Assembly: GCF_055900595.2 (NCBI RefSeq)
Contig: NZ_CM148325.1
DNA: 64,000 nucleotides
Direction: 5' to 3' (one strand)
This document shows, piece after piece, positions 15,668 to 19,116 of this stretch (its first letter is position 1; each line of letters begins with the position of its first letter). The notes under the pieces were generated by a model. That model was given only the letters and a program-made list of their open reading frames with translations. It was not told where the DNA came from and did not search any database. Both the position numbers and the translations under genes were made by a program.

Positions 15668-16000
15668 TCAGTTATCAGGCATTCTGGCGGGTGGAATAAC
15701 CGCATTGGTGGCTTGCGCGTTGGCTTCGCTTTTTTCAACGCGTGAGCGCACCGAGCTGTCTTTGCGGAATACATCCCACGGCAGTAAAAGCGTATCCATC
15801 ACAGCGGTAAACGGCATATCGAGAATCGCTAGCGACTTAGTGCCCCAGTTGGTTTCATCGTCGCCAATCATGGTGGCGCTGGCGCGGGTGCCGGGATATG
15901 TTCCTTCTTTCCCCCCGGTATGGGACATCACGCTGGAGCATCCTCCGAGTAATGTCATTCCGCTGCATATCATGAACGCTAACAACACATTTCTTATCAT
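15668..16000 (-). CDS. yidQ: Small lipoprotein YidQ (DUF1375)
   Basis: Internal ATG at 16000 gives MIRNVLLAFMICSGMTLLGGC (lipobox LGGC), 110 aa; ORF track shows a longer frame to 16075. Confidence 0.85.
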   Translation of the reverse strand: MIRNVLLAFMICSGMTLLGGCSSVMSHTGGKEGTYPGTRASATMIGDDETNWGTKSLAILDMPFTAVMDTLLLPWDVFRKDSSVRSRVEKSEANAQATNAVIPPARMPDN

Positions 16001-16174
16001 AATAAATTCATCTGTTGATCGTGGGTGTTGGCCTGATGAGTTATAGCGATCCCTTGCTGAAAATAACATCATCATTACGTCGCACTGTGGCGGCTATCGC
16101 ACTTTAACGTTTCGTGCTGCCCCCTCAGTCTATGCAATAGACCATAAACTGCAAAAAAAAGTCCGCTGATAAGG

Positions 16175-16204
16175 CTTGAAAAGTTCATTTCCAGACCCAT
16201 TTTT
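16175..16204 (+). promoter_or_regulatory. Sigma-32 heat-shock promoter of ibpAB
   Basis: cttgaaa (16175-16181) then 14 nt then cccattttt (16196-16204), matching the sigma-32 consensus TTGAAA-N13-14-CCCCATnT; leaves an about 100-nt 5' UTR consistent with the known ibpA RNA thermometer. Confidence 0.75.
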
Positions 16205-16305
16205 ACATCGTAGCCGATGAGGACGCGCCTGATGGGTGTTCTGGCTACCTGACCTGTCCATTGTGGAAGGTCTTACATTCTCGCTGATTTCAGGAGCTAT
16301 TGATT

Positions 16306-16719
16306 ATGCGTAACTTTGATTTATCCCCGCTTTACCGTTCTGCTATTGGATTTGACCGTTTGTTTAACCACTTAGAAAACAACCAGAGCCAGAGTAATGG
16401 CGGCTACCCTCCGTATAACGTTGAACTGGTAGACGAAAACCATTACCGCATTGCTATCGCTGTGGCTGGTTTTGCTGAGAGCGAACTGGAGATTACCGCC
16501 CAGGATAATCTGTTGGTGGTGAAAGGTGCTCATGCCGACGAACAAAAAGAGCGCACCTATCTGTACCAGGGCATCGCTGAACGCAACTTTGAACGCAAAT
16601 TCCAGTTAGCTGAGAACATTCATGTTCGTGGTGCTAACCTGGTAAATGGTTTGCTGTATATCGATCTCGAACGTGTGATTCCGGAAGCGAAAAAACCGCG
16701 CCGTATCGAAATCAACTAA
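16306..16719 (+). CDS. ibpA: Small heat shock protein IbpA (alpha-crystallin family)
   Basis: 137-aa protein [25 protein letters not shown]...RRIEIN. Confidence 0.97.
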
Positions 16720-16830
16720 TTCCCTAAGGCCGCCTGGCGCGGCCTGATATCTCCATGCTCGCCGTCAGGGAGCATATGCGAATCTTCGGATTTGCAGGTA
16801 CTTACTCGCTTCTTAGAAGGAGAAATGACT

Positions 16831-17259
16831 ATGCGTAACTTCGATTTATCCCCACTGATGCGTCAATGGATCGGTTTTGACAAACTGGCCAACGCACTGC
16901 AAAACGCCGGTGAAAGCCAAAGCTTCCCACCGTACAACATTGAAAAAAGCGACGATAACCACTACCGCATTACCCTCGCGCTGGCAGGTTTTCGTCAGGA
17001 AGATTTAGAGATTCAACTGGAAGGTACGCGCCTGAGCGTAAAAGGCACGCCGGAGCAGCCAAAAGAAGAGAAGAAATGGCTGCATCAAGGGCTTATGAAT
17101 CAGCCGTTTAGCCTGAGTTTTACGCTGGCTGAAAATATGGAAGTCTCTGGCGCAACCTTCGTAAACGGTTTACTGCATATTGATTTAATTCGTAATGAGC
17201 CTGAACCCATCGCAGCGCAGCGTATCGCTATCAGCGAACGTCCCGCGTTAAATAGCTAA
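16831..17259 (+). CDS. ibpB: Small heat shock protein IbpB
   Basis: 142-aa paralogue [25 protein letters not shown]... directly downstream of ibpA. Confidence 0.97.
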
Positions 17260-17274
17260 CTAGCTATTCTCTTT

Positions 17275-17302
17275 GCCCCACCATTCTGGTGGGGCTTTTT
17301 TT
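17275..17302 (+). terminator. Rho-independent terminator after ibpB
   Basis: gccccaccattctggtggggc hairpin followed by ttttttt. Confidence 0.8.
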
Positions 17303-17454
17303 GTCTTTCTTCTTCAACAATGCGTTAATTTTCGCCTGTTTAAGATATTTCGGCACGTTCTTTCCCGTGATAATGTGCGCTATAAGGCAAATCTGCTTCA
17401 CCGATTCAGCCATAATCCGTAGCAATTAAAATGTTATCTCAAGAGAAATGGACG

Positions 17455-19116
17455 ATGAGTGATATAGCATTAACGGTCAGTATTCTGGCTTTGGTGGCAG
17501 TCGTCGGTTTGTTTATCGGCAACGTCAAATTTCGCGGCATAGGATTAGGTATTGGCGGCGTGCTGTTTGGTGGGATCATCGTCGGCCATTTTGTTTCTCA
17601 GGCGGGGATGACATTAAGTAGCGATATGCTGCATGTTATTCAGGAATTTGGCCTGATCCTGTTCGTTTATACCATCGGTATTCAGGTGGGGCCGGGCTTC
17701 TTTGCTTCATTGCGCGTCTCCGGATTACGCCTCAACTTGTTTGCTGTTCTGATTGTCATCATCGGTGGTCTGGTTACCGCCATCCTGCATAAGCTGTTTG
17801 ATATTCCACTGCCGGTCGTGCTGGGGATTTTCTCCGGTGCGGTAACCAATACGCCAGCGCTGGGGGCGGGGCAGCAGATCTTGCGCGACCTGGGTACACC
17901 AATGGAAATGGTCGATCAGATGGGGATGAGCTACGCGATGGCGTATCCATTTGGCATTTGCGGGATCTTGTTCACCATGTGGATGTTGCGGGTTATTTTC
18001 CGCGTCAATGTCGAGACAGAAGCCCAGCAGCACGAGTCTTCACGCACCAATGGCGGCGCGCTGATCAAGACTATCAATATTCGCGTTGAGAACCCTAACC
18101 TGCATGATTTAGCCATTAAAGATGTACCGATTCTCAACGGGGACAAAATTATCTGTTCGCGTCTGAAACGAGAAGAAACCCTAAAAGTACCTTCGCCTGA
18201 TACCATTATCCAACTGGGCGATTTGCTGCATCTGGTGGGGCAGCCAGCGGATTTACATAATGCGCAACTGGTGATTGGTCAGGAGGTCGATACCTCGCTG
18301 TCCACGAAAGGCACTGATTTACGCGTCGAGCGTGTGGTGGTCACCAATGAAAACGTGCTTGGTAAGCGTATTCGCGATCTGCACTTTAAAGAACGCTATG
18401 ACGTTGTTATTTCGCGTCTGAACCGTGCTGGGGTCGAACTGGTCGCCAGTGGTGATATCAGCCTGCAGTTCGGCGATATCCTCAACCTGGTGGGGCGTCC
18501 GTCCGCAATTGATGCCGTTGCCAATGTGCTGGGGAATGCGCAGCAGAAACTGCAACAGGTTCAGATGCTGCCGGTGTTTATTGGTATCGGGCTTGGCGTA
18601 TTGTTAGGTTCTATTCCCGTCTTTGTGCCGGGATTCCCGGCGGCGTTGAAACTGGGACTGGCGGGCGGTCCGCTGATTATGGCGTTGATCCTCGGGCGTA
18701 TCGGCAGTATCGGTAAGCTGTACTGGTTTATGCCGCCAAGCGCCAACCTCGCGCTGCGGGAGCTGGGGATCGTACTGTTCCTCTCGGTAGTGGGGCTGAA
18801 ATCTGGTGGGGATTTTGTAAATACCCTGGTCAATGGCGAAGGGCTAAGCTGGATTGGATATGGTGCCCTGATCACCGCCGTTCCGCTGATTACTGTTGGT
18901 ATTCTGGCGCGGATGTTAGCCAAAATGAATTACCTGACCATGTGCGGAATGCTGGCTGGCTCCATGACCGATCCTCCGGCGCTGGCGTTTGCTAATAATC
19001 TTCATCCAACGAGCGGTGCGGCGGCGCTCTCTTACGCCACTGTTTATCCGTTAGTGATGTTCCTGCGCATTATCACCCCCCAATTACTGGCGGTGCTCTT
19101 CTGGAGTATCGGTTAA
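17455..19116 (+). CDS. yidE: Putative transporter YidE (AAE family, duplicated membrane domains with central TrkA-C/RCK domains)
   Basis: 553-aa protein [23 protein letters not shown]...; hydrophobic N- and C-terminal halves flank a soluble middle segment. Confidence 0.9.

Follow-up and report, generated by a model that had tools for sequence, protein, structure and literature searches.

Our analysis shows that positions 16175–16305 of the 64,000-nt stretch of DNA studied here (the window; contig NZ_CM148325.1 of NCBI RefSeq assembly GCF_055900595.2) are almost certainly the native control region of the Escherichia coli ibpAB small heat-shock operon, comprising a sigma-32 promoter and a ROSE leader for control at the levels of transcription and translation. 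Identity to the E. coli K-12 sequence, membership of an RNA family, the geometry of the promoter and conserved or covarying hairpins in the leader were all observed directly. The coding sequence of ibpA occupies 16306–16719 on the plus strand and encodes a small heat-shock protein of 137 aa (open reading frame list, RefSeq annotation and a Pfam HSP20 match of 85.6 bits), with its ATG at 16306–16308. According to the RefSeq annotation, ibpB follows downstream of ibpA at 16831–17259, and yidQ lies upstream of ibpA on the minus strand at 15668–16000. The IbpA protein of the window is identical to K-12 IbpA, and R93, R97, K98 and the C-terminal IEI motif are all kept.

Comparison with E. coli K-12 MG1655 showed that 16128–16319 is 100% identical, with promoter and leader agreeing base for base. 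Of 5417 complete E. coli genomes, 5346 carry the 171-bp stretch of promoter plus leader (16150–16320) at an identity of at least 99%. A wider region of 1.5 kb (15900–17400) is matched in 5419 of 5426 complete E. coli genomes, with the annotation yidQ, ibpA, ibpB, but reaches at least 99% identity in only 105 of those 5419, which means that the control region is more conserved than its flanks. The window represents an E. coli strain other than K-12. Its flanking sequence differs by 1–5% from most genomes, while 16128–16319 carries no difference from K-12, and the strain divergence therefore sits in the flanking genes and not in the control region. Several assemblies align with the window at identical coordinates (NZ_CM128605.1, for instance, at 15900–17400), which suggests that the window is the opening 64 kb of an E. 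coli chromosome rotated in a similar way.

The −35 element, CTTGAAA, is found at 16175–16181 on the plus strand, where it was read directly and is supported by pattern match, conservation and agreement with the consensus CTTGAA (PMC3669281). It is followed by a spacer at 16182–16194 (14 nt, 16182–16195, if counted from CTTGAAA to CCC), which in 80 orthologues has a fixed length and a variable sequence, and by the −10 element aCCCATTT at 16195–16204 (CCCATTTTT, 16196–16204), assigned through conservation and consensus match. The end of the −10 element at 16204 lies 101 nt upstream of the ibpA ATG. Set against the published sigma-32 consensus, NNCTTGAA-N13-18-CNCCATAT (PMC3669281), the site reads ggCTTGAA-N14-aCCCATtT, with CTTGAA at 16175–16180, a 14-nt gap, and aCCCATtT at 16195–16202. 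Of the seven positions that CNCCATAT specifies, the site matches six, and 16175–16202 accordingly holds CTTGAA and a CNCCATAT-like −10 element within the 13–18 nt separation of a sigma-32 promoter.

A single copy of CTTGAAA-N12-16-CCCATNT is present in the 64-kb window, where dinucleotide-preserving shuffles lead one to expect 0.01. A looser pattern, TTGAAA-N12-15-CCCAT, likewise finds only the ibpA site, but would be expected 0.34 times per window, and conservation therefore weighs more than the count alone. This looser expectation is also what lends some room to the view that the match is fortuitous and that ibpA is transcribed from a promoter of another type, for example a sigma-70 promoter, or by read-through. 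To place the site in a comparative context, we aligned the upstream regions of 80 Enterobacteriaceae loci, one genome per species, whose IbpA proteins are 91–100% identical. Positions C-T-T-G-A at 16175–16179 and A16181 are invariant in this set, whose A16180 is present in 77 sequences and replaced by T in the other three. The spacer between CTTGAAA and CCC measures 14 nt in 79 of the 80 orthologues while its bases vary freely. In the −10 element, A16199 and T16202 are invariant and C16196–C16198 are kept in 66–72 of the 80 sequences, and the segment between the −10 element and the first leader hairpin is variable. An invariant −35 element, a fixed spacing and a conserved −10 element are what a promoter of two elements held at a set distance should leave behind, and their conservation in 80 species, amid a spacer and flanks that vary, argues against a fortuitous match, as does the 0.01 expectation for the full pattern.

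Genome-wide binding data for K-12 point the same way. The SigH ChIP region SigH_380 (3864946–3866182 in U00096.2) covers the ibpA promoter at 3865547–3865576 (PMC3923258 supplement), and an RpoH holoenzyme SELEX-chip peak at 3865668 falls in the ibpA–yidQ spacer, in a data set that also marks ibpA as an RpoH target listed by RegulonDB (PMC5493296); these ChIP and SELEX regions are of low resolution, being hundreds of bases wide. SigD, SigE and SigS ChIP peaks also overlap the ibpA promoter region (PMC3923258 supplement), which would fit another promoter type, but the SigE peak is explained by a divergent yidQ promoter, and our scan of both strands of 15900–17500 returned no sigma-70-like site. 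Taken with the conservation, these data leave transcription of ibpA from another promoter type or by read-through very improbable. The sequence-only reading had placed near-consensus sigma-32 elements some 100 nt ahead of the start codon of ibpA, and CTTGAAA-N14-CCCATTTTT is confirmed as such, unique in the window and conserved in 80 species. Sigma-32 (RpoH) RNA polymerase would recognise this site and start transcription at or near G16210.

Upstream of the promoter, we observed a perfect palindrome, GTCTATGCAATAGAC (16128–16142), and a tract of eight A residues (16153–16160). Both are strongly conserved in genera ranging from Escherichia to Klebsiella and Enterobacter. The minus strand of 16128–16164 contains GGACTT-N17-TCTAT, which would drive yidQ. 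This arrangement resembles the sigma-E consensus, GAACTT-N16-TCTGA. We considered the A tract as a possible UP element of ibpA; it is more simply read as belonging to the spacer between the two elements of a divergent, sigma-E-like promoter of yidQ. Both yidQ and yidR have been listed as sigma-E regulon genes (PMC2685091), and the SigE ChIP peak corresponds to 16084–16484 of the window (PMC3923258 supplement).

The position of the transcription start was approached through the published leader. The 5′ UTR given for E. coli ibpA in Table S1 of PMC10474464 begins with gtagcc, which corresponds to 16210 on the plus strand of the window; two bases of the window are absent from the machine-read table, apparently through a reading error. 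All 80 orthologues have a purine in column 16210, and seven nucleotides (16203–16209) separate G16210 from T16202, the end of the −10 core. The supplements of PMC3923258, PMC4782308 and PMC3415461 contain no usable entry of primary start-site data for ibpA. From the published 5′ UTR and the purine column we infer that G16210 is the transcription start, which gives a leader of 96 nt (16210–16305).

Within this leader, the Rfam family ROSE_2 (RF01832) matches 16240–16312 on the plus strand over the whole of its 73-position model (1–73), scoring 100.4 bits where the gathering score is 65 (E = 3.2e-23). A ROSE feature with the same coordinates, 16240–16312, is annotated by RefSeq in the genome matching the window. 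The match ends at 16312, in codon 3 of ibpA, and therefore runs slightly past 16305. Its location, in the 5′ UTR of an Hsp20-type gene (by the Pfam HSP20 score and the ibpA annotation), is that of a ROSE_2 element. Only ROSE_2 scored above its own threshold: nothing matched classical ROSE (RF00435) at E ≤ 1, and ROSE_3 (RF02523) reached 20.8 bits on the leader, below its gathering score of 43. The earlier suggestion that the leader is long enough for a ROSE-like thermometer is thus borne out by its length, by its three hairpins and by the ROSE_2 score, and the alignment with the characterised K-12 leader is 100% identical.

The leader folds into three hairpins on the plus strand. Hairpin I (16210–16248) is stable and belongs to the minimum-energy structure at every temperature tested, with a two-state melting temperature of ~86 °C and covariation in its inner stem. 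Hairpin II (16251–16272), taken from the Rfam ROSE_2 consensus structure, is likewise stable (~79 °C) and has a nearly invariant stem, CCUGUCC/GGAAGG. Hairpin III (16276–16302), taken from the Rfam ROSE_2 alignment, is the thermosensing element, with its core at 16280–16296; it comprises the ROSE motif UCGCU (16281–16285) with G16283 bulged, the loop AUUU (16287–16290) and the Shine–Dalgarno (SD) sequence AGGAG (16292–16296). The Rfam structure line places the SD sequence opposite UCGCU in a core of 6 bp and leaves the AUG at 16306–16308 unpaired, as found in ROSE elements, and the start codon lies outside the hairpin. The motif conforms to the published definition U(U/C)GCU (PMC3669281). A leader lacking any hairpin that sequesters the SD region would have spoken against a thermometer; here, AGGAG sits opposite UCGCU in hairpin III.

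Stabilities calculated by a nearest-neighbour, two-state treatment rank the hairpins in the order I, II, III, the last melting at 55 °C as a whole and at 67 °C if its core is taken by itself. With a free energy of −4.1 kcal/mol at 37 °C for this core, hairpin III is the weakest of the three and much weaker than hairpins I and II. This predicted ranking agrees with the published description of "stable and unstable elements". Three hairpins in 96 nt, of which the 5′ ones are stable and the one holding the SD sequence is labile, correspond to the ROSE_2 architecture, and ROSE-type elements have been described with two to four hairpins and leaders of 60 to more than 100 nt (PMC10474464).

Comparative data from the 80 orthologues support the three-hairpin structure. 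In the alignment, 87.7% of cells are paired, compared with 32–52% when the pairing partners are slid by one to three columns, and 185 cells are doubly changed, compared with 69 ± 10 in shuffles. The inner stem of hairpin I shows compensatory changes in seven of nine pairs, with 92% of cells paired, and hairpin II is paired in 94.7% of cells, with two covarying pairs (A-U in 35 sequences, G-C in 34) and no variation in the rest. In hairpin III, 99.8% of the core cells are paired over the 80 species, with no covariation, and the basal 2 bp are paired in 62% only. Since the core is invariant, covariation neither supports nor refutes hairpin III; the constraint on the core is one of sequence. The ROSE motif and its bulged G are preserved across the 80 species, the sole change within the motif being a C to U in one species (locus L047), which fits the U(U/C)GCU degeneracy.

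Because the stem of hairpin II (16253–16259 with 16265–16270) is almost invariant while hairpin I changes compensatorily at the same depth, hairpin II is perhaps recognised by its sequence. We tentatively suggest, as a possibility that we think improbable, that this stem may be read by sequence and shape together, for example as a specific docking site for the IbpA oligomers that act in autorepression.

To examine the response of the leader to temperature, we folded the E. coli sequence with ViennaRNA at 10–80 °C. Hairpin III was not part of the minimum-energy fold below 42 °C; its predicted pair probability was 0.17–0.32 at 25–37 °C and increased with temperature, and the predicted accessibility of the SD sequence fell, rather than rose, with temperature. 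In its place, the minimum-energy and centroid structures of 16210–16320 at 20–37 °C contain an alternative 3′ fold, in which CGC at 16282–16284 pairs with GCG at 16308–16310 and UCAG at 16290–16293 pairs with UUGA at 16300–16303, masking part of the SD sequence and the start codon. The outer 3-bp helix of this fold can form in 80 of 80 orthologues; both of its strands, however, are invariant for other reasons, one belonging to the ROSE motif and the other to the Met-Arg codons. Only 64% of cells are paired in the inner helix, whose C-G pair is present in 24 of the 80 sequences and which shows no covariation, and no measure of the fold exceeds shuffles. Most orthologues are instead predicted to form the ROSE hairpin: at 37 °C the SD sequence pairs with the ROSE motif with a mean probability of 0.73, compared with 0.06 for partners further downstream, and from the former value we conclude that the alternative fold is idiosyncratic to E. 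coli. That the alternative fold is the functional one is thus hardly credible.

A third candidate, a long-range anti-SD interaction, was rejected. It joins UGGCU-A-CCUGA (16241–16251) to UCAGGAGCUA (16290–16299) through 10 bp with one bulge, and was seen only in folds that omit hairpin I, the base of which it needs to be open. It is not conserved, since pairing of the SD sequence upstream of hairpin II has a mean probability of 0.07 in the orthologues.

Across the orthologues, the SD sequence is predicted to be ~87% paired at 10–50 °C, with a flat mean accessibility of 0.12–0.14, and no melting between 10 and 50 °C occurs in nearest-neighbour models. The folding energy of the whole leader is not unusual (z-score −1.64). 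The sequence-only reading had proposed comparing predicted folds at 30 and 42 °C; having run this comparison, we find that an SD-sequestering hairpin exists, but that its melting is not reproduced and that the comparison does not discriminate. ROSE hairpins depend on competition with the ribosome and on non-canonical pairs next to the bulged G that such energy models miss. The ibpA leader shows that nearest-neighbour folding at 30 versus 42 °C is an invalid test for thermometers of the ROSE type. The case for thermosensing comes from published experiments and not from the models, and the melting mechanism is one that we infer.

Those experiments were performed on the K-12 sequence, which is identical to that of the window, and by this analogy sigma-32 dependence, thermal induction and autorepression by IbpA would carry over to the region described here. 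When fused to bgaB behind a temperature-independent promoter, the E. coli ibpA thermometer gave 14 Miller units at 25 °C and was induced 4-fold at 42 °C (PMC3669281). Work on the leader has described three stem-loops, of which SL1 and SL2 support SL3, and SL3 masks the SD sequence; strengthening SL3 abolishes expression (bioRxiv 10.1101/2020.04.20.050740). In the mechanism that we propose, hairpins I and II would stay stable, and the weak 6-bp hairpin III would block 30S binding at low temperature. Heat shock would open hairpin III and so increase translation, by ~4-fold between 25 and 42 °C if published reporters are a guide.

A further published layer acts on the same leader: IbpA oligomers associate with it and keep translation repressed for as long as protein aggregates do not titrate them away (bioRxiv 10.1101/2020.04.20.050740). 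Residues R93, R97 and K98 of IbpA are needed for this repression (PMC10410725, PMC10474464). The thermometer reading of the leader is supported, with IbpA autorepression as an added layer that the sequence-only reading did not contain.

Taken further, these observations could mean that the leader is mainly a docking platform for negative feedback by IbpA, sensing aggregation, together with a determinant of mRNA stability, and that melting of hairpin III is minor in vivo. Reporters carrying the 5′ UTR are repressed by IbpA in cells as well as in the PURE cell-free system. This repression is relieved when any one of the three stem-loops is weakened, and protein aggregation at 37 °C can induce expression with no heat applied (PMC10410725; bioRxiv 10.1101/2020.04.20.050740). 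The thermometer has also been described as partly open already at 37 °C (PMC10410725), and the lack of melting in the physiological range by nearest-neighbour models is in keeping with a docking platform. The nearly invariant stem of hairpin II, next to a freely covarying hairpin I, would fit sequence-specific recognition. Against a minor part for melting, however, an E. coli ibpA leader fusion transcribed from a temperature-independent promoter was induced 4-fold between 25 and 42 °C, and ROSE-type leaders from Pseudomonas control ribosome binding in vitro without IbpA (PMC3669281). The signature of thermosensing, ROSE motif and bulged G, is moreover kept across the 80 species. On balance we consider a leader that works mainly as a docking platform unlikely; this view overlaps with our preferred reading, a sigma-32 promoter followed by a ROSE thermometer, and does not exclude it.

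The region can be placed among known systems. With the E. coli K-12 ibpA promoter and thermometer (RF01832) it shares an identical promoter, leader and coding sequence, a match to the full model and the same three-hairpin architecture. Classical rhizobial ROSE elements (RF00435), such as ROSE1 upstream of hspA in Bradyrhizobium japonicum, follow the same principle in the 5′ UTR of a small heat-shock gene. There, too, the 3′-proximal hairpin pairs the SD sequence with U(U/C)GCU and upstream hairpins are stabilising (PMC3669281). Classical elements have three to four hairpins (PMC3669281), compared with three in the ibpA leader, in which RF00435 is unmatched at E ≤ 1. Short ROSE-like ibpA thermometers of Pseudomonas share the sigma-32 promoter, a last hairpin that pairs the SD sequence with U(U/C)GCU, an unpaired AUG and a G+C-rich first hairpin that does not melt (PMC3669281). 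Their leaders measure 61–62 nt and contain two hairpins, whereas that of the window measures 96 nt and contains three, and ROSE_3 falls below threshold here. Rhizobial ROSE genes have a different promoter type.

Additional elements were noticed along the rest of the operon. The ibpA–ibpB intergenic region (16720–16830) contains a second ROSE-like hairpin, CUCGCUUCUUAGAAGGAG, at 16805–16823, in which the ibpB SD sequence pairs with UCGCU around a bulged G, and three more hairpins lie upstream of it (16727–16745, 16755–16775 and 16777–16796). Compared with the ibpA leader, this one is situated inside the operon rather than behind a promoter, has other upstream hairpins and has no Rfam match, no family having been found at E ≤ 1. 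An RNA thermometer of ibpB that is also repressed by IbpA has been described (PMC10410725; bioRxiv 10.1101/2020.04.20.050740).

Inside the 3′ end of ibpA, TGGTAAATGGTTTGCT at 16640–16655 on the plus strand resembles the sigma-54 pattern TGGCAC-N5-TTGCA with three mismatches, ~190 nt upstream of ibpB, and is the only such site nearby. The window contains 179 such matches against 220 expected, which is below chance, and we rejected this candidate, as a match alone is meaningless. A sigma-54 promoter has been reported for ibpB. Downstream of ibpB, a terminator-like hairpin, GCCCCACCATTCTGGTGGGGC, occupies 17275–17295 and is followed by a run of T residues (to 17302). Sub-threshold Rfam matches to small RNAs at 17231–17303 (Hrs1, anti-hemB, ncS54, PrrF, SdsR and rli32) all fall on GCCCCACCATTCTGGTGGGGC and the T-run, and were dismissed as generic resemblance to a terminator.

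The ibpA promoter and ROSE leader are already known in every respect that we tested. K-12, the strain in which all three layers of control were worked out, carries a sequence identical to that of the window. As a textbook example of heat-shock control in layers, the region combines a sigma-32 promoter, a ROSE thermometer and autorepression by the chaperone, and it holds little new biology.
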